DNA from: a phage
DNA length: 64,000 bases
Sequence record: PX667085.1
Direction: 5' to 3' (one strand)
The translations under genes and the position numbers were made by a program. Shown piece after piece: positions 4,960 through 56,698 of the stretch. Positions within the stretch are counted from its first letter, which is position 1, and each line of letters opens with the position of its first letter. The notes under the pieces are model-generated. The model was not told where the DNA came from, made no database searches, and saw nothing but the letters and a program-made list of their open reading frames with translations.

Positions 4960-5600
4960 GAGGTCAAATGCTCAAAGGTAAACGTGCAGTGACCGTTACT
5001 ACCGAAAGGGGAGAAATCCCCTTAGTAGTTGATGTAGAAAGACGATTATTTGTAGACGGGAAGCCCGACCCGTCTTACAAAGCTTGGAAAAACATGTTCG
5101 AAAGAGCCTATAAAATGGAACAAGCAAGACCTGGGTATACAGGTGTGACGGTTTGTGACGAGTGGTTTATGTTTTCAAACTTCGACATGTGGTATCAAGA
5201 AAACTTTGTAGCAAACTTTGTTCTGGACAAAGACCTTGTACTTGAAGGTAATACGGTCTATTGTCCAGCGTATTGTAGGTTTGTTCCAGCATATGTGAAT
5301 ACTCTGTTAAGTTACTCAAAAAGGACGGAAAGAAAATCCCTTTTAGGGGTAACTGTAAGAAAATCCGATGGTAAGATTTCTTCTAAATCATCTGGACACA
5401 AAGGAAAGCATTTAGGTTACTTCGCTACAGAGGAAGAGGCACACTTCGCTTGGCTAAAAGATAAAGCTAAGTCAATCAGGGAAACAGCGGATCGTTACAA
5501 AGAGGAAGAACATTTTTATCCAGAGGTGTACAACACTCTTGTAAACAAGGCGGATTTCTATTGGCACCTGGCGGAAACAAAAACAGTATTTCGAGGCTAA
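4947..5600 (+). CDS. homing endonuclease-like protein with AP2-type DNA-binding domain (mobE-like position)
   Basis: C-terminal GVTVRKSDGK...HLGYFATEEEAHFAW resembles AP2 domain; inserted between nrdA and nrdB as mobE is in T4. Confidence 0.5.
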   Translation: MQHVGGQMLKGKRAVTVTTERGEIPLVVDVERRLFVDGKPDPSYKAWKNMFERAYKMEQARPGYTGVTVCDEWFMFSNFDMWYQENFVANFVLDKDLVLEGNTVYCPAYCRFVPAYVNTLLSYSKRTERKSLLGVTVRKSDGKISSKSSGHKGKHLGYFATEEEAHFAWLKDKAKSIRETADRYKEEEHFYPEVYNTLVNKADFYWHLAETKTVFRG

Positions 5601-5604
5601 ATAT

Positions 5605-5626
5605 AAAGGGGCTTCGGCCCCCTTTT
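5605..5626 (+). terminator. intrinsic terminator
   Basis: AAAGGGGCTTCGGCCCCC hairpin followed by TTTTATT. Confidence 0.7.
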
Positions 5627-5643
5627 ATTAAGGAGAATTTTAA

Positions 5644-6729
5644 ATGGCAGCAATTAATTTACACAATGAAGTTTACAAAACAGGAAAATATCCAGTATTT
5701 TTGGGGGAGCAATTAGGGATCTTTGATTCTGTTAACGTAACTTATCCAGAAATGCACAAACTCTACAAACTTCAAAAAGCACAAGATTGGGATGAAAACG
5801 AAGTTAATCTGGATCAGACACGTAAAGATTTCGTAGCTTGTTCTAAAAACAACTATGATGTTATGATTAAAAACTTATCGTTCCAATGGGAAAATGATTC
5901 TCTTGCAAAATCAATCATCACTTTGTTCTCTCCATTCTTGAGTAACAATGAAGCCTGTGCTATGATGATGAAGCAGAGTGAAATGGAAGTTCTCCATGCG
6001 TTAACGTATTCTGAAATAATCCGTCAATGTACTCCAGATCCAATTGAAGTCATCAATCAGATTATGATTAATGATAAAATTTTCAATCGTATGGGTATCA
6101 TTGCTGATATCATGGGTCAGTTGGAAGAAGCTGGTCATAAGTATGCTCTAGGATTGATTGAAGCTAACGATGAACTTCGCTTGCTGATTCTTAAAGGGAT
6201 GGTAGCCCTGATTGGATTAGAAGGTATTCAGTTTATATCTTCCTTCTCTGCTACTTTTGCTATGGCAGAACAACAACTGTTTGTTGGGGCTTGTAAACTG
6301 ATCCAGAAAATTATGCTAGATGAAATCTTGCATGTTAAGATGGACTATGCTGTAATTGATGCATTGATGCATGACCCAATTTGGCGTAAAATTTACGAAG
6401 ATAATATTGAAGAGTTGACTTTGATCCTCGACACTGTTGTTGAACAAGAGGAACAGTGGTGTGACTACCTGTTTAGTGAAGGTCGTTTTATTGTAGGTCT
6501 TAACGCCGAATTGTCTAAACAGTGGGTTTATTTCAATGCTGCTCCTATTTATCGTCGATTGAAAATGAAAGCCAAGTTTAAAGCACCTAAACATAGTCCT
6601 TTAGCTTGGATGGAAAAATGGTTGAATCCTGATTTGATTCAGTCAGCAGCCCAAGAGATTCAGTTAACTAATTACAAATTGAATTCAGCTAACAAAGATC
6701 TCTCTGATGATGAGGAGCTTGACTTCTAA
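5644..6729 (+). CDS. nrdB: ribonucleotide reductase small subunit
   Basis: 361 aa, position after nrdA, size and context typical of class Ia beta subunit. Confidence 0.8.
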   Translation: MAAINLHNEVYKTGKYPVFLGEQLGIFDSVNVTYPEMHKLYKLQKAQDWDENEVNLDQTRKDFVACSKNNYDVMIKNLSFQWENDSLAKSIITLFSPFLSNNEACAMMMKQSEMEVLHALTYSEIIRQCTPDPIEVINQIMINDKIFNRMGIIADIMGQLEEAGHKYALGLIEANDELRLLILKGMVALIGLEGIQFISSFSATFAMAEQQLFVGACKLIQKIMLDEILHVKMDYAVIDALMHDPIWRKIYEDNIEELTLILDTVVEQEEQWCDYLFSEGRFIVGLNAELSKQWVYFNAAPIYRRLKMKAKFKAPKHSPLAWMEKWLNPDLIQSAAQEIQLTNYKLNSANKDLSDDEELDF

Positions 6730-6938
6730 TGATTTTGAGATGTGTTGGTATAATCGACACATTCAAAGACGTTTTTGACAAAGGGGCTTCTTATGAAGCC
6801 TCCGAAATGAAGAATGGTTTTTGTGATGTATTCGGTAAACGCCTGAAGAAAAACGGCGATCCTTGGCTAGGAGTTATGTCTTGTGGTCATATTATTGTAA
6901 ATGGTGTTGCCAAGTTTGAAATAATTAAGGAGGAATAA
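6729..6938 (+). CDS. hypothetical protein
   Basis: 69-aa ORF abutting nrdB stop. Confidence 0.45.
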   Translation: MILRCVGIIDTFKDVFDKGASYEASEMKNGFCDVFGKRLKKNGDPWLGVMSCGHIIVNGVAKFEIIKEE

Positions 6939-16919: not shown

Positions 16920-17100
16920 AACAGTAGAAGAAGCCGTAAAAGCAGCTTATGAGGCTTTAGCGGAAGCAGAGCAGTTAGCAGATGAGACTGGTAAAGGTTT
17001 CCGTTTCTCCCCTGAATATGGGATGGGTGGCTATTATGATCCAGAAGATGAAAATGAGAATACTGGAACAAATTGGCATCCATCTTCTTTAAGTTGTTAA
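16903..17100 (+). CDS. small acidic protein, C-terminal NWHPSSLSC
   Basis: 65-aa ORF; member of WxSSSC C-terminal motif group. Confidence 0.5.
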   Translation: MTTKFKTVEEAVKAAYEALAEAEQLADETGKGFRFSPEYGMGGYYDPEDENENTGTNWHPSSLSC

Positions 17101-17111
17101 TAGGAGGTAAA

Positions 17112-17387
17112 GTGGGAATCGAAGATATCAAAGGTTATAAGGCGCATACTGACGATAAGATTGGCAAGGTTAACGCTATTAAAGATGCAGAAGAGCGTTT
17201 AGGTTTAATCTTCAAAGCTTTAGAGGAAGAGTATTGTGAAGCATATCATGGGTCTTTTGACGGCACAGAAAAAGAATTAGATCTTGCATACGAACGTATT
17301 GATCAAATCCGTTGTGCTATTAAACATTTAAAAGAAGCTAGTATGTGGGCTTGTCGTTCAGTTTTCCAACCAGAGGAGAAATACTAA
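17112..17387 (+). CDS. hypothetical protein
   Basis: ORF; GTG start after AGGAGGT chosen over table start. Confidence 0.4.
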   Translation: MGIEDIKGYKAHTDDKIGKVNAIKDAEERLGLIFKALEEEYCEAYHGSFDGTEKELDLAYERIDQIRCAIKHLKEASMWACRSVFQPEEKY

Positions 17388-20703: not shown

Positions 20704-21189
20704 ATGTTTCAAGTAAATGTCAATGTGCATAATAGTTACTCTGATTGTGAAACGTGTGGCTATAATTCATCTAATGTTGTTCGTATTAGTGGCGATTTAG
20801 GAGAAGCTTCTTTTGGAGAAGAAGCAAGTTGCTTTAGTGGTATGGATGCAGAATGGAATGATATTGCACATTGGTTAGTGAGCAAACTAAAAGAAAAAGA
20901 GAAACCATTTCCTACTCTGCTTGATCGTTCTCTTGTGGAAGATGCAGGTAAAGCATATGCAGACTATGCGTATGCAGACGGGAAATATTTGGAAGATGAT
21001 AAGGCTAACCATTTGCTTTATGTTTACTATGAAGCTGAATCTGCCTACGATAATTATTACAGCATGTCTAACATCCTACGTCTGTTTGCAGAGTTTGATA
21101 TTTATTTCGAAGTAGAATTTTCAGAAGATGATACTTACGAGTACAATTCTTATGATCCATTTGAGGAGGAAGAATGCCAAGACGAGTGA
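20704..21189 (+). CDS. hypothetical acidic protein, translationally coupled to Sir2
   Basis: 161-aa ORF overlapping the Sir2 start by 16 bp. Confidence 0.55.
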   Translation: MFQVNVNVHNSYSDCETCGYNSSNVVRISGDLGEASFGEEASCFSGMDAEWNDIAHWLVSKLKEKEKPFPTLLDRSLVEDAGKAYADYAYADGKYLEDDKANHLLYVYYEAESAYDNYYSMSNILRLFAEFDIYFEVEFSEDDTYEYNSYDPFEEEECQDE

Positions 21190-21989
21190 TTTTTGTAAGC
21201 GGTGCAGGTTTAAGTGCAGACAGTGGGATTCGAACATTTAGAACAGACACAGATAGTGGTCGTGCTTTATGGGAAGAATATGATTTAGAAGAGGTCTGCG
21301 ATATTGGAGCTTTCCAAGCAGGTTATCGTGTTAGAACATCTCCAGATCTTCCAGTGGTCGGTGGTGTAGACGAGAACGGTATGGATTTGTATGCCAAAAC
21401 ACACGAATTTTATAACAAAAGACGTGTTGAGCTTAAAGATGTACAACCTAATGCTGCACATATTCAAATAGCAAAGTGGTTTAAGGAATATCCTAACCAA
21501 ATAGTAAACTTGACAACAAACGTTGATGATCTACTAGAGCGAGCAGGTGTAGACAGAGATTCTGTTATTCACGTACACGGCTATCTTCCTGAAGTAGTTT
21601 ACCGTATGCATCCTGGAGATTACAAAACACTGGTAGATATTGGTTACAATAGTATAAACATAGATGATTATAACTGGGTGAAGCCTAATGTTGTATTTTT
21701 TGGTGAGGCTGCACCTTTGTATGCAGATATGGCTCACTTGTTCGATACTTTGACCATGCAAGATTTGGTTGTAGTAGTAGGATGTTCAAACCAAGTTATC
21801 AATTTTAATTGGGAATTATTTCCTGCACTTAGTATGGGTACAAAAATGGTTGTAGTTAACCCTGGAGTTAATTACGAAGAAACACTTCTCTATGAAGATC
21901 GTGGAGTTTTTGTTTACCGAGAAAAAGCTGCAACAGCCTTCAGCAATGAAGGTTTCATTAAAATGGTCGAAGACCACTTAAACAAATAA
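21174..21989 (+). CDS. Sir2-family NAD-dependent deacylase/NADase-like protein
   Basis: GAGLSADSGIRTFR nucleotide-binding motif, TTNVDDL and HVHG motifs. Confidence 0.75.
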   Translation: MPRRVIFVSGAGLSADSGIRTFRTDTDSGRALWEEYDLEEVCDIGAFQAGYRVRTSPDLPVVGGVDENGMDLYAKTHEFYNKRRVELKDVQPNAAHIQIAKWFKEYPNQIVNLTTNVDDLLERAGVDRDSVIHVHGYLPEVVYRMHPGDYKTLVDIGYNSINIDDYNWVKPNVVFFGEAAPLYADMAHLFDTLTMQDLVVVVGCSNQVINFNWELFPALSMGTKMVVVNPGVNYEETLLYEDRGVFVYREKAATAFSNEGFIKMVEDHLNK

Positions 21990-53060: not shown

Positions 53061-53195
53061 GATCTTAACTCCAGGTGATAAATGATGTTTTTTGTTGGTG
53101 GACGGTGGATTATGGAGATCCTCACCTTTGCCCGTCCTGCATTGCGCCCTCCTGTTGTTTATTGTCGTTGTGCCGCGCCCCCCTCGACAAGATGA

Positions 53196-53224
53196 ATACT
53201 ACGCTACCAGGTGAGGAACGTCAA
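53196..53224 (-). promoter_or_regulatory. sigma70-type promoter TTGACG-17-TAGTAT (minus strand)
   Basis: Divergent from the plus-strand promoter at 53258. Confidence 0.45.
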
Positions 53225-53257
53225 CCACTTTTTCAATCTTTTTTATTTTCTTTTTGC

Positions 53258-53286
53258 TTGCTATATATAAAGGAAAGGGCTATCAT
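53258..53286 (+). promoter_or_regulatory. sigma70-type promoter TTGCTA-17-TATCAT
   Basis: Followed by GCGCC-AACCAG-GGCGC leader hairpin and RBS. Confidence 0.5.
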
Positions 53287-53333
53287 CTTTCTACCGCGCC
53301 AACCAGGGCGCACAACAAAGAAAGGGCGACACC

Positions 53334-53501
53334 ATGACAAATACTACATTACACCTTATGCACTCATTGGGCTGGCAAGGCGGCACGGTGCACCAGGTAG
53401 CAAGCGCAACGGGCTTAAAGGTTGAAACAGTTCTCAACCTGGGCGATCATAAGGTGGAAGAGATAGATCATTTTGATACGTTCGCAAATGGTTATCTATA
53501 G
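53334..53501 (+). CDS. small helix-turn-helix DNA-binding protein (55 aa, Cro/XRE-like)
   Basis: TVHQVASATGLKVETVLNL HTH-like segment; own promoter; below ORF-table cutoff. Confidence 0.5.
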   Translation: MTNTTLHLMHSLGWQGGTVHQVASATGLKVETVLNLGDHKVEEIDHFDTFANGYL

Positions 53502-53602
53502 GCTTGCAGTGGCGGCGGGGAAAGCAAGATACCACCAGGGGCGCGGGGCGATATGTATTTTTGGTTAGGTGTCCTATCCTGGCAAGAAAACAAAAAATAA
53601 TC

Positions 53603-53631
53603 TTGACAAGCCCAGGGATCGGGCTTATACT
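53603..53631 (+). promoter_or_regulatory. near-consensus sigma70 promoter TTGACA-17-TATACT with no downstream ORF
   Basis: Hexamers read directly; next 750 bp have no convincing plus-strand ORF. Confidence 0.55.
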
Positions 53632-53850
53632 GTTTTACATACAGAAGAGGAAGCGCCACCCCACGGCGTAAAGGCGGGGCTAACATACCAGGGGCACTGG
53701 TTGGAAGGTTGATCGCCGGTAGGCTGGGCGCTATATATTTGTAAAGAAATGTAAAGATAAAATAATCGCTTGCTTTCCTGGCTGGATCTGTTATTCTTAT
53801 TACATGGCGAGGGGACACGGGAGCGCGAGACAAACACCACCCCTGCGCGT

Positions 53851-53964
53851 CATTCTCTAAATGAGAATGATTATCATTTACCTTATTGAATAAGAATCAA
53901 TCTCATTTATAAACTTAAATGCGAATCATTCTCATTTGCATTTCCACATGAGAACTCTTCTCAT
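53851..53964. promoter_or_regulatory. cluster of operator-like palindromes (Fur-box-like)
   Basis: CATTCTC-TAAAT-GAGAATG, GAGAATGATTATCATT, AATGCGAATCATTCTCATTTGCATT, ATGAGAA-CTC-TTCTCAT. Confidence 0.45.
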
Positions 53965-53980
53965 CCCCACCTGCATAAAT

Positions 53981-54188
53981 TTTTGTAAACTTTAAATTTT
54001 GCTTTTGTACTTTCATTTTTGTAAAAGCAAAAAAACTTTAAATACTGTGGGCGCGCAAAATTTTTAAAATTTTCCTTGACTTTTGAGTTTTGTTTTGTAT
54101 CTAACATTTTAAGATAATTTTCCTAAACTTTAAATTTTGGTTTTCAACTTTCACTTTTGTAAATTCTTAAAAAGTTTAAATAATTTGA
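53981..54188. repeat. two ~65-bp AT-rich direct repeats
   Basis: AAACTTTAAATTTTGsTTTT..ACTTTCAyTTTTGTAAA occurs at about 53981 and 54122. Confidence 0.5.
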
Positions 54189-54405
54189 GGGATTTTTGAG
54201 ATAATAGGTAGTGGAAATTTGAGATAACCTTTAATCTTATTGGTAGACCTTCAGGAACTCACCTAAATCGAATCCTAGTGATGCAAACTGAAAAAGATAA
54301 GTGTTTGTATAAGACAAAATAACAGGCTCTCTACGGTGCTGTAGGAGCCTTATTTCTGTGCTACAAAGTGACACCTTTGTTCTAAAAATGAAAAAAGTTA
54401 AAATA

Positions 54406-54948
54406 TCACAAATATCGTCTTTGCGGTATTTTGTCTGGGAAAAGTATTTCGATCAGTTTGTTATGATATTTGCCTAAAAGATTCTGCCCTTTCCAGGTGG
54501 CAGGGTTTAGCACCCCTGGTTCATACATCCCCATTCCAATTCCGTAAACCTTATCGTAGGGGCTTGCTTCAACAAACGTTTTGTATTGGTAAAGGTGTAA
54601 GTCTGCATACAAATCTGGATTCTGTACATATTTCAAGCATAAACCTCGCATAACAATACGCTCACGGTTCTCTTCCCATACGTTGTTATCAAAATCCGAC
54701 ACTGCCCTACCCATACGTTTGTAATAAGCTTGGATCTTCTCATCTTTCCGTATCAAACTATGAGTCAGAATAGCCTGTGCAGTGTTGTGGTCATTAAAAA
54801 GCAAAGCTTTACGCCACATCATGTATTGTTCGACACAATTAAATGTTTGATTGTAACCTGGTTCGGTTTCTGTAAAGGGTGCAATATACCAATTACTAAA
54901 CACATCTTTATGTGAAAAGAAGAATACATAATCATCAGTTATTCGCAT
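54406..54948 (-). CDS. NADAR-family (YbiA-like, DUF1768) protein
   Basis: VFFFSHKDVFSNWY, EQYMMWRKALLF and YGIGMG motifs. Confidence 0.7.
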   Translation of the reverse strand: MRITDDYVFFFSHKDVFSNWYIAPFTETEPGYNQTFNCVEQYMMWRKALLFNDHNTAQAILTHSLIRKDEKIQAYYKRMGRAVSDFDNNVWEENRERIVMRGLCLKYVQNPDLYADLHLYQYKTFVEASPYDKVYGIGMGMYEPGVLNPATWKGQNLLGKYHNKLIEILFPDKIPQRRYL

Positions 54949-55159
54949 TTTTCATACTCTCCAAAATTTCACGTTGCCCTTGCTGATAGGCTTTCATCAG
55001 AACTACTTTAAGGTTTGTCTCCAAGAGGTCTTCATTGTAATTATACCGCTCCACAACATATGTCAATTCATCATAAAGATCAAGAACGGGGTAGAATACA
55101 GGGTTATCTGCTAAACGTGCCATAGTTTCTCCTTTGTTAATCCATCCACCAGTAGCCAT
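54935..55159 (-). CDS. hypothetical protein
   Basis: 74-aa ORF. Confidence 0.45.
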   Translation of the reverse strand: MATGGWINKGETMARLADNPVFYPVLDLYDELTYVVERYNYNEDLLETNLKVVLMKAYQQGQREILESMKNANN

Positions 55160-55502
55160 AAACTGCGTCTGCGTCGATGAGTTTGTGTTTGTTGTTCCGC
55201 ATGTAGTCTAAGATAAGTAGACGTTTATTGTATCTGGAGAGATTATGACCCTCTTTTCCGCCATAGTCAAAATATTTTGCAAGATCTTTGCACTCAAACA
55301 AAATTAGTTCAGGAGTTTCTTCACACTGGTCTGTCTGGTACACTTGACGAATGATCATGTATACATCGTCGTCTTCCGCTAAATGCTCTACTGGTCCACA
55401 TCCAGCAGGAACAAATTCATAGTCCCATCGAATCAGATGTTTCTCTACTGCTTCAAAGAAATCCATCCTTTCGTTGCGCATAATTTGAACGTCAACTAAC
55501 AT
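55137..55502 (-). CDS. hypothetical protein
   Basis: 121-aa ORF. Confidence 0.5.
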   Translation of the reverse strand: MLVDVQIMRNERMDFFEAVEKHLIRWDYEFVPAGCGPVEHLAEDDDVYMIIRQVYQTDQCEETPELILFECKDLAKYFDYGGKEGHNLSRYNKRLLILDYMRNNKHKLIDADAVYGYWWMD

Positions 55503-56698
55503 GTTTCCTCCTGTAATGTTCCACCATAAAGTTTATAAATGTTTTGTATTGAGGCCATGCAAGATAACTCTACTGTTTCTGTGTAGCCATCTGGCATAGC
55601 ATATTTGCTCACTGCTTCCGTGTGAAGGACACGCTTACAACGCTTCTCTGCATCTTTGCATTGCTTCACAGTAGGGAAGTGCCACACTTGGACCTGTTTC
55701 ATAGTAAACACATTACGACTATTTTGTTTTTTGATACGGCGATCACTATTATTGGCAATTCCAAATTTCAAAGCACAGAGAATACCTTGTTCATCATGAA
55801 TGTGGTTAATGTAACATTGTTGTTGTGTCTGGTTAGCACATTGCGGACAACCAGTGCCATGATTTAACAAACCACTGGCACGTCCTATTTGTACCCCATG
55901 TTTCTTACATCCATATTTAAACTTACCTAATCTTACAGACGGTTTCCCGATCCAACCTACCCAGATATACCCTTTCCTTTCTACTGCCTTTTTTACCCTA
56001 TAGGTAATCTGTGCTTCTGTGTAATGACAGTTAGTTGCACAACGGCAAGGAATCTTCCCTTGTTTAAGGTCATTCCCTGCGACATAAAACTTACCATCAC
56101 ACACCCCAGCTTGCACATACTCATCGTGAGAGCAGGCAGGACACTCTACACACCATAAAGAATCGCGGCCTCGTTTTTTATCTGTTTTAGTGAAGATTGT
56201 ACCCTCTTTAAACTTTCCTGTATTAATGAAGTCTTGTATGTGCTGATCGTCTGGAAGTATTTTAGAATTCCTAGATCTTTTGTTACCGCATTTAGGACAA
56301 CCACTACCACCCTTAAGATTATGAAATGTTAATGTTCGCCATTCCCCGTGCTCAGGACAAAGGTTGATCATCTTTGTATGTACACCTATAAACTCTCCAT
56401 TAATGCCTAAAATCTTGATTCCCTTAGCTTCAGCAATAGGTTTACATTCCGAAAGGTAATAATCTAGGTTTTTACTGTTGTCTTGTCTTGCTTTCTCATT
56501 TTTGCACCTAGGGCAACCAGACTTACCACGTTTAAAATTGGCAAATGTGGATGTTCTCCACTCCCCATGATTAGGGCAGAAGTTGATCATCTTCGTGTGC
56601 ACACCTTTAAATGGCTCTACAATCCCTATAATCTCATATCCTTTAGCTTCCGCTATTGGTTTACATTCTCCTATATACTGTTCTAACGTCTTCGCCAT
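55496..56698 (-). CDS. zinc-ribbon repeat protein with T5orf172/GIY-YIG-like C-terminal module
   Basis: Repeated CPxHGEWRT...GCPxC units; C-terminal GIANNSDRRIKKQ and PDGYTET shared with ORF 61484..62470. Confidence 0.45.
   Translation of the reverse strand: MAKTLEQYIGECKPIAEAKGYEIIGIVEPFKGVHTKMINFCPNHGEWRTSTFANFKRGKSGCPRCKNEKARQDNSKNLDYYLSECKPIAEAKGIKILGINGEFIGVHTKMINLCPEHGEWRTLTFHNLKGGSGCPKCGNKRSRNSKILPDDQHIQDFINTGKFKEGTIFTKTDKKRGRDSLWCVECPACSHDEYVQAGVCDGKFYVAGNDLKQGKIPCRCATNCHYTEAQITYRVKKAVERKGYIWVGWIGKPSVRLGKFKYGCKKHGVQIGRASGLLNHGTGCPQCANQTQQQCYINHIHDEQGILCALKFGIANNSDRRIKKQNSRNVFTMKQVQVWHFPTVKQCKDAEKRCKRVLHTEAVSKYAMPDGYTETVELSCMASIQNIYKLYGGTLQEETC

Follow-up and report, generated by a model that had tools for sequence, protein, structure and literature searches.

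A NADAR protein of a Phapecoctavirus phage as a probable AdfN-type anti-DarTG1 factor

INTRODUCTION

The closest characterized relative of the protein described here is AdfN^Bas60, a NADAR protein encoded by phages Bas60, Bas61, and Bas62 (Johannesman et al., Nat Commun 2025, PMC11825919). AdfN^Bas60 clusters with bacterial NADARs that are neither DarT-associated nor YbiA (PMC11825919). In uninfected E. coli, it neutralizes DarT1, and when it is present RB69, T5, and Bas25 again form plaques on DarTG1 cells; the thymidine-modifying DarTG2 is not countered (PMC11825919). In the accessible part of the published text, AdfN^Bas60 was assayed by ectopic expression only, with no knockout in a native phage, and the assays thus show its sufficiency, not its necessity in its own phage. 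AdfN^T4 (gp30.3) is a proven anti-DarTG1 factor that is necessary and sufficient in T-even phages; the necessity for growth on DarTG1 hosts was reported by Johannesman et al. (PMC11825919) and in the HIDEN-SEQ preprint. AdfN^T4 depends on the context of a T-even infection, whereas AdfN^Bas60 does not (PMC11825919). AdfN^T4 and the AdfN^Bas60 lineage are independent acquisitions.

The wider family has been studied structurally and biochemically. Schuller et al. 2023 (PMC11543638) described the residues of Phytophthora nicotianae NADAR (PnNADAR) that contact ADP-ribose. In vitro, members of the general NADAR family hydrolyze ADP-ribosylated guanine (G-ADPr) and cytosine (C-ADPr), in DNA and RNA (Toxins 2026). 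One position separates the subfamilies: YbiA and the general NADARs carry Glu there, DarG1 carries Asp, and the T4-type proteins carry His. A second signature is a Glu/Lys pair, which corresponds to E43/K50 in PnNADAR, E88/K95 in E. coli C7, and E36/K43 in T4, and which was mutated in published work on E. coli C7 DarG1 and T4 AdfN. Here, we compare a phage gene, predicted from its DNA sequence to encode a NADAR protein, with these systems.

RESULTS

The NADAR gene and its surroundings

Phapecoctavirus phages are myoviruses of ~150 kb that belong to the subfamily Stephanstirmvirinae. We analyzed a stretch of phage DNA of 64,000 nucleotides (sequence record PX667085.1), the whole of which is called the window. 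By megablast, its NADAR region belongs to Phapecoctavirus (phAPEC8-like E. coli myoviruses). The best match was phage ECO340P1 (98.3% over 4 kb), and phage EF1-1 encodes an identical NADAR protein. A literature search for papers on Phapecoctavirus NADAR found no relevant report. The following features, taken from the ORF list and its coordinates, from reading of the sequence, and from RNA folding, define the locus.

54406..54948, minus strand: NADAR coding sequence, ATG to stop, 180 amino acids (aa), stop codon counted in the coordinates
54957-54962, minus strand: Shine-Dalgarno-like GGAGAG, 8 nt 5' of the NADAR ATG (read from the sequence)
54935-55159, minus strand: co-oriented 74-aa ORF upstream of NADAR (phrog_22330 match)
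54935..54948, minus strand: 14-nt overlap between the end of the 74-aa ORF and the start of NADAR (ORF coordinates)
54309..54350, minus strand: intrinsic-terminator-like hairpin (54324-54350), then a U-rich tract (54309-54323) (RNA fold)

The original prediction had placed an ORF with three YbiA/NADAR motifs here. The ORF was exact, and all three motifs were found in its translation: VFFFSHKDVFSNWY at residues 8-21, EQYMMWRKALLF at residues 40-51, and YGIGMG at residues 135-140. The Shine-Dalgarno-like element lies in the minus-strand sequence ...TTTTGGAGAGTATGAAAAATG. The 14-nt overlap suggests that the 74-aa ORF is cotranscribed with NADAR and may be translationally coupled to it. At the other end, the terminator-like hairpin starts 56 nt past the NADAR stop codon. 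Folding of 54290-54410 (minus strand) gave a minimum free energy of -30.5 kcal/mol (z = -4.16), and none of 200 shuffled sequences was equally stable. At the equivalent position in phAPEC8, an ARNold-predicted terminator is annotated. Because of the downstream hairpin and the phAPEC8 terminator, NADAR appears to close a leftward transcription unit, a block made up of small genes of early type. Neither tRNAs nor Rfam elements were found near the gene.

Around NADAR lie ORFans, an AAA ATPase gene, and a gene for a putative homing endonuclease with a CapR/DUF723 Zn ribbon. The endonuclease-like neighbor is itself mosaic, with 65.6% identity to the phAPEC8 copy. No ADP-ribose-related domain was found in the immediate neighbors, and a functional tie of NADAR to the adjacent genes was rejected for this reason. 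A Pfam survey, run in batch on 94 other ORFs of the window, revealed genes of nucleotide metabolism (RNR, ThyX, PhoH, RmlC/D), a protein with an Acb2/Tad1 hairpin, and a Sir2-family protein encoded as follows.

21174-21989, plus strand: Sir2-family gene (Pfam survey of the window)

ART, macrodomain, NAMPT, and riboflavin genes were not found among these 94 ORFs, and a homolog of AdfM (Tk.4) was not found in the window. A search by phmmer with T4 Vs.4 detected a homolog of the known counter-defense gene Acb2 in the window, indicating that the phage does invest in anti-defense functions.

Family and fold assignment

The translated ORF was matched by Pfam PF08719 (NADAR / DUF1768) with 124.2 bits (gathering score, 35.1; E = 7.8e-36) over residues 11-161, corresponding to profile positions 3-154 of 163. 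It was also matched by TIGR02464 ("riboflavin biosynthesis intermediates N-glycosidase") with 113.1 bits (cut-off, 73.7), a model of the domain that general NADARs match as well, and by phrog_1017 (E = 7.5e-52). The best sequence match in the PDB, found by phmmer, was 8BAU, the structure of PnNADAR with ADP-ribose (E = 3.8e-15). An AlphaFold2 model built from an alignment of 55 homologs had a pLDDT of 95.5 and a pTM of 0.89. When it was compared to the PDB with Foldseek, only 8bau (TM 0.78) and E. coli YbiA 2b3w (TM 0.69) were significant. The model and these matches display the YbiA-like alpha+beta fold. The assignment to the NADAR family, proposed from motifs, was therefore confirmed by the three profiles, with which the fold and the catalytic residues agree.

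Two models of bacterial anti-phage proteins were also considered. The DS-32 NADAR anti-phage protein (NCBIfam NF053876) scored 17.4 bits, below the cut-off of 240. The PADLOC model PDC-M42C matched with 121 bits; this match is a likeness at the level of the NADAR domain to a candidate bacterial system and is no evidence of a defense role.

Active site and subfamily

The ADP-ribose-contacting residues of PnNADAR were mapped to the phage protein via alignments, and the numbering was verified at 13 positions by comparing residue types. The correspondences are E43 to E40, K50 to K47, K75 to K77, G78 to G80, R79 to R81, V81 to V83, Y84 to F86, D86 to N88, W89 to W91, R93 to R95, E125 to E127, D130 to D132, and W133 to Y135. 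Twelve of the 13 contact positions, including E125 (E127 here), are identical or conservatively replaced; D86 (N88) and W133 (Y135) are the ligand-contact positions described as unlike PnNADAR. The catalytic or ADP-ribose-contact residues E40, K47, K77, R81, W91, R95, E127, and D132 are kept. Among the 55 homologs, E40, K47, K77, G80, W91, E127, and D132 were invariant. The Glu/Lys pair is E40/K47, with the same E-x6-K spacing as in the reference NADARs, and the lysine required for DarT1 rescue in vivo (C7 K115, equivalent to Pn K75) is retained as K77. Taken with the family and fold assignment, the protein is almost certainly a functional NADAR-fold ADP-ribosyl glycohydrolase, its activity being predicted from these features.

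At the position that separates the subfamilies, the phage protein has Glu (E127). Its identity is 36% to PnNADAR, 29% to YbiA, and 18% to T4 gp30.3, and phmmer at E <= 1 detects 8bau, not 2b3w. E127 and the greater closeness to PnNADAR point to the general NADAR clade, and not to YbiA, DarG1, or the T4 type, as the probable place of the protein; DarG1 is set apart by the features described below.

Comparison with AdfN^Bas60

A tblastn search detected a homolog with 59% identity over 172 aa (E = 8e-70) in the BASEL phage JohannJBalmer, which is Bas62 by its locus tags. This homolog (bas62_0106, QXV81452.1) is annotated "putative YbiA-like N-glycosidase" and is the only NADAR locus in the Bas62 record. 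Since AdfN^Bas60 was assigned to Bas60-62 in the paper and Bas62 has this single NADAR locus, we took bas62_0106 to be AdfN^Bas60.

The two phages belong to the same subfamily, Stephanstirmvirinae, and in both the NADAR gene lies downstream of an AAA ATPase gene and a gene for a Zn-ribbon endonuclease-like protein of ~400 aa. Both proteins stand alone, are ~180 aa long without an N-terminal extension, and have the active-site Glu/Lys/Glu and the Tyr of the "YGI" motif in common. They differ in several respects. Bas62 belongs to the sister genus Justusliebigvirus, and its protein carries 7 extra residues following residue ~33 and GIK in place of the GIG of the Phapecoctavirus protein. In our window, two small ORFs (74 and 121 aa) separate the endonuclease-like gene from NADAR. 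By identity and synteny, the phage NADAR is assigned as an orthologue of AdfN^Bas60. NCBI taxonomy listed no BASEL phage among the Phapecoctavirus taxa. The BASEL phage JohannRWettstein was considered as phAPEC8-like and was rejected; it is a Felixounavirus.

Comparison with other NADAR proteins

By sequence and fold, the closest structure is that of PnNADAR (8BAU), and the general NADARs, which include the E. coli sigma70-linked NADAR and S. coelicolor SCO5665, are the corresponding reference group. The identity to PnNADAR is nevertheless only ~28-36%, and the loop and helix around residues 51-72 are of another length in the phage protein. The references of this group are cellular proteins, whereas the present one is encoded by a phage.

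With AdfN^T4, the protein shares the organization as a stand-alone phage NADAR and the residues E40 and K47, equivalent to T4 E36 and K43. At 18% identity and with E127 in place of the T4-type His, it falls outside the T4 type. DarG1 (the BC4488-type antitoxin) belongs to the same superfamily and shares the chemistry of guanine de-ADP-ribosylation, which is predicted for the phage protein. However, the catalytic position of DarG1 is Asp, its N terminus carries a DNA-binding extension, and a darT1 gene lies next to its own gene. The phage protein has Glu127 and a core that begins at residue ~7, thus lacking an N-terminal extension, and no ART domain was found in the NADAR neighbors or elsewhere in the window.

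YbiA (2B3W) resembles the phage protein in its fold, in the Glu at the subfamily position, and in a TIGR02464 score above the cut-off. It differs by its identity of 29%, and the riboflavin or LexA-operon context is missing from the phage locus: there is neither an association with RibA/RibD nor the rhlE-ybiA-dinG arrangement of K-12. In the study by Cihlova et al. 2024, YbiA gave no DarT1 rescue in cells.

Distribution and sequence variation

Megablast detected the NADAR gene in 71 phage records and the conserved ATPase gene next to it in 65. In NCBI taxonomy, Phapecoctavirus comprises 13 named species together with 41 unclassified taxa. These counts suggest that NADAR is essentially universal in the genus. 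Its dN/dS was 0.05 versus phAPEC8, 0.06 versus tuntematon, and 0.13 versus Schickermooser, showing that the gene is under purifying selection.

Comparison of alleles revealed a variable region inside the coding sequence.

54664..54858, minus strand: hypervariable patch inside the NADAR coding sequence, codons 31-95 (allele comparison)

Between our phage and Schickermooser, codons 31-95 differ by 18-45% in nucleotides, with synonymous sites saturated. Outside the patch, the NADAR gene differs by ~3%, and the neighboring genes have dS values of 0.06-0.13. All 16 amino acid changes between the two proteins fall within residues 6-90 and are clustered at residues 52-72, which form helix 54-62 and the loop preceding the helix with K77, G80, and R81. 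At least three patch variants were found among the NADAR alleles. The patch is the result of recombination between divergent alleles.

Beyond the genus, NADAR homologs were found in 719 phage records, mostly of Staphylococcus, Listeria, Enterococcus, and Bacillus phages, with some of Escherichia phages. Such a wide spread suggests that the target extends beyond E. coli DarTG1. The closest cellular homologs (42-48% identity) have no recognizable DarT alongside. One setting is a prophage-like region, another is a gene alone on the chromosome, and in a third the gene lies directly before an AbiEii-domain gene.

DISCUSSION

We consider it probable that the main biological role of this protein is to reverse DarT1-type ADP-ribosylation of guanine in phage DNA, a substrate deduced from its relatives. 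A stand-alone NADAR ADP-ribosyl N-glycohydrolase would be made during infection. A DarT1-type toxin of the host, or some other ADP-ribosyltransferase directed at guanine, would attach ADP-ribose to the N2 of guanine in the phage DNA and block replication. The enzyme would bind the ADP-ribose, with K47, R81, W91, and R95 holding the pyrophosphate, F86 stacking on the adenine, and E40 together with E127 positioning the distal ribose. Hydrolysis of the N-glycosidic bond between ribose and base would then yield unmodified DNA and allow replication. The phage enzyme would act as an orphan "antitoxin", that is, as an AdfN-type anti-DarTG1 factor. A counter-defense role against DNA ADP-ribosylation, as originally predicted, agrees by analogy with the published tests of the syntenic, 59%-identical AdfN^Bas60. 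On the other hand, at 59% identity a divergence in specificity from AdfN^Bas60 is possible. Moreover, T4 gp30.3 and YbiA kept G-ADPr activity in vitro, yet both failed to rescue uninfected cells from DarT1 (Cihlova et al. 2024), so conserved G-ADPr activity is no guarantee of DarT1 rescue in cells.

The protein could instead be a broad nucleic acid de-ADP-ribosylase that acts on cytosine as well as guanine, whether in RNA or in DNA, its true targets being ART toxins beyond or besides DarT1. We regard this as unlikely; it extends the anti-DarT1 explanation and does not contradict it. E127 matches the Glu typical of NADAR and YbiA families able to remove G-ADPr as well as C-ADPr, and DarG1 (Asp) and the T4 NADAR (His) are specific for G (Toxins 2026). 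The protein is also nearer to PnNADAR than to YbiA or T4 (see the identities above), the family is widespread in phages of Gram-positive hosts, and the internal hypervariable patch is compatible with shifting targets. However, single-residue mutants of SCO5665 kept their base selectivity, which makes a prediction from E127 alone weak, and ScARP and Scabin are the enzymes known to modify C (Toxins 2026); a cytosine-ADP-ribosylating anti-phage system is not described in the literature covered. A more general version, which we put forward tentatively and hold to be doubtful, is that the Glu-type stand-alone NADARs of large virulent myoviruses, those of Stephanstirmvirinae and their homologs in Staphylococcus, Listeria, Enterococcus, and Bacillus phages, are general erasers of base ADP-ribosylation (G or C, DNA or RNA) and not DarT1-specific. 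The recombining patch at residues 52-72, beside the active-site helix, would then adapt them to other ART toxins or substrates, undiscovered defenses included. Action on soluble molecules is improbable; like the broad-eraser reading, it would widen the main explanation without opposing it. Iyer et al. 2022 argued that phage NADARs target mainly soluble ADPr derivatives, and a protein of this kind could degrade or sequester NAD+-derived signals such as cADPR isomers or free ADPr. The ADPr-binding pocket is conserved, and a nonenzymatic phage NADAR is reported to inhibit Retron-Eco1 (Carabias et al. 2024, as cited by Johannesman et al.). Against this stand the action of the orthologue AdfN^Bas60 on the DNA-modifying DarT1 (PMC11825919) and the invariant catalytic Glu and Lys under purifying selection, which argue for catalysis rather than mere binding.

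Two further roles are very improbable, and both were rejected. Several orthologue records are annotated "GTP cyclohydrolase II", as are many in GenBank, and the TIGR02464 score above its cut-off could be read as a housekeeping, YbiA-like N-glycosidase of riboflavin intermediates. PF08719 is, however, the sole Pfam match of the protein at an E-value limit of 1, with no GTP_cyclohydro2 domain. The label is thus a transitive annotation error, which goes back to RibA-NADAR fusion proteins. The riboflavin-pathway activity that had been suggested along with counter-defense is likewise an unlikely role for the phage protein: the Pfam survey of the window contained no riboflavin genes, and the protein is nearer to PnNADAR than to YbiA, with its orthologue in a non-YbiA clade (PMC11825919). 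As to the Sir2-like enzyme encoded at 21174-21989, the presence of both genes in one window, and papers from the Aravind laboratory that tie NADAR to NAD-utilizing enzymes in general, could speak for a partnership in which NADAR reverses or processes ADP-ribosylation made by the phage itself. A distance of 33 kb separates the two genes, which lie on opposite strands, and Sir2 was found in 984 records, mostly of Escherichia, Salmonella, Klebsiella, and Vibrio phages, which barely overlap the 719 NADAR records. Distance, strand, and the largely disjoint phyletic distributions make such a partnership unlikely.

Reversal of DarT1-type modification is the reading that we prefer. Phage orphan NADAR antitoxins, including the orthologue of the sister genus, have already been published (Nat Commun 2025), and nothing in this assignment is conceptually new. 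Judged by its sequence, the protein is a further member of the known AdfN-type orphan NADAR lineage, in the AdfN^Bas60 branch. The intragenic mosaic patch is one small new lead and might mark a specificity-determining surface.

The comparison provides a probable function, that of an AdfN-type anti-DarTG1 factor, for a Phapecoctavirus gene that is labeled "hypothetical protein" or, wrongly, "GTP cyclohydrolase II". Phages similar to phAPEC8 are often considered for therapy. Our prediction is that Phapecoctavirus phages would resist E. coli strains carrying DarTG1.

Variation within and around the NADAR gene

Comparison of the NADAR CDS with its Schickermooser allele revealed an intragenic recombination patch:

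54664-54858, minus strand: codons 31-95 of the NADAR CDS

Within this patch, the two alleles differ at 18-45% of nucleotides, compared to approximately 3% in the remainder of the gene. The resulting amino-acid changes are concentrated at residues 52-72, and at least three patch variants are present within the genus.

On the upstream side of the NADAR gene, domain and PHROG matches defined an endonuclease-like gene, which is separated from the AAA ATPase gene by a hairpin:

55496-56698, minus strand: endonuclease-like protein, 400 aa
56743-56762: hairpin with a perfect, GC-rich 8-bp stem and a TTCG/CGAA loop

The 400-aa protein contains DUF723 zinc ribbons as well as three CapR-homology domains; it also matches GIY-YIG-like MUG113 weakly, and phrog_681 ("endonuclease"). 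It shares only 65.6% identity with the phAPEC8 copy, whereas its neighbours on either side, the ATPase and the 121-aa ORF, are 100% identical. Its length is not constant among relatives (333 to 487 aa). This gene behaves like a mobile cassette of the homing-endonuclease type. The hairpin is terminator-like on both strands, and an ARNold terminator is annotated at the equivalent position in Schickermooser. Therefore, the transcription unit with the NADAR gene may begin downstream of this hairpin or need read-through.

Directly downstream of the NADAR gene, we found a 1.35-kb ORF-poor stretch with several repeats:

53061-54405: ORF-poor stretch
53859-53937: 37-nt inverted repeat
53978-54049 and 54116-54187: 72-nt direct repeat, copies 82% identical
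at 54068: third copy of the direct repeat, 29 nt

One half of this stretch (53100-53850) is GC-rich (approximately 50% GC); its GC and AT skews are reversed, and all of its ORFs are dubious. Among them, the 113-aa ORF starting with TTG (gp009 in the phAPEC8 annotation) had no PHROG match. The repeats lie in the other half (53850-54300), where the sequence is AT-rich (26% GC). An Rfam search gave no match, RNA folding z-scores were weak, and the stretch is variable among relatives. It is possibly a promoter or regulatory cluster.

Annotation and a cellular relative

In many Phapecoctavirus GenBank/RefSeq records (e.g., PQ571289.1, NC_052662.1 and OM386667.1), the orthologue is labelled "GTP cyclohydrolase II"; most remaining records call it "hypothetical protein". 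Since NADAR is the only domain of the protein in the window, the cyclohydrolase label is, judged by domain content, an annotation error.

A cellular relative with 48% identity to the phage NADAR protein is encoded in GCA_001045155.1:

contig AZIJ01013903.1, locus positions 5001-6895: NADAR and AbiEii-domain gene pair

Here, the first 4 nt of a gene for a 461-aa AbiEii-domain (nucleotidyltransferase toxin-like) protein are shared with the NADAR gene, and a LexA-type repressor is encoded nearby. The two genes may constitute a toxin-antitoxin or defence pair containing NADAR.

Other genes of interest in the window

Two further genes were noted:

21174-21989, plus strand: Sir2-family protein, 271 aa, with motifs GAGLSADSGIRTFR and HVHG
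17073-17387, plus strand: homologue of T4 Vs.4 (Acb2), found by phmmer and Pfam

Homologues of the Sir2-family protein occur in 984 phage records, chiefly of T5-like and rV5/phAPEC8-like enterobacterial phages. T4 Vs.4 (Acb2) is a cyclic-oligonucleotide sponge that counters CBASS. The ORF at 17073-17387 matched T4 Vs.4 with E = 5.7e-31 (phmmer) and the Pfam family Acb2_Tad1_hairpin at 2e-16; its real start is probably downstream of the listed TTG. By homology, it is likely a second counter-defence gene within the window.
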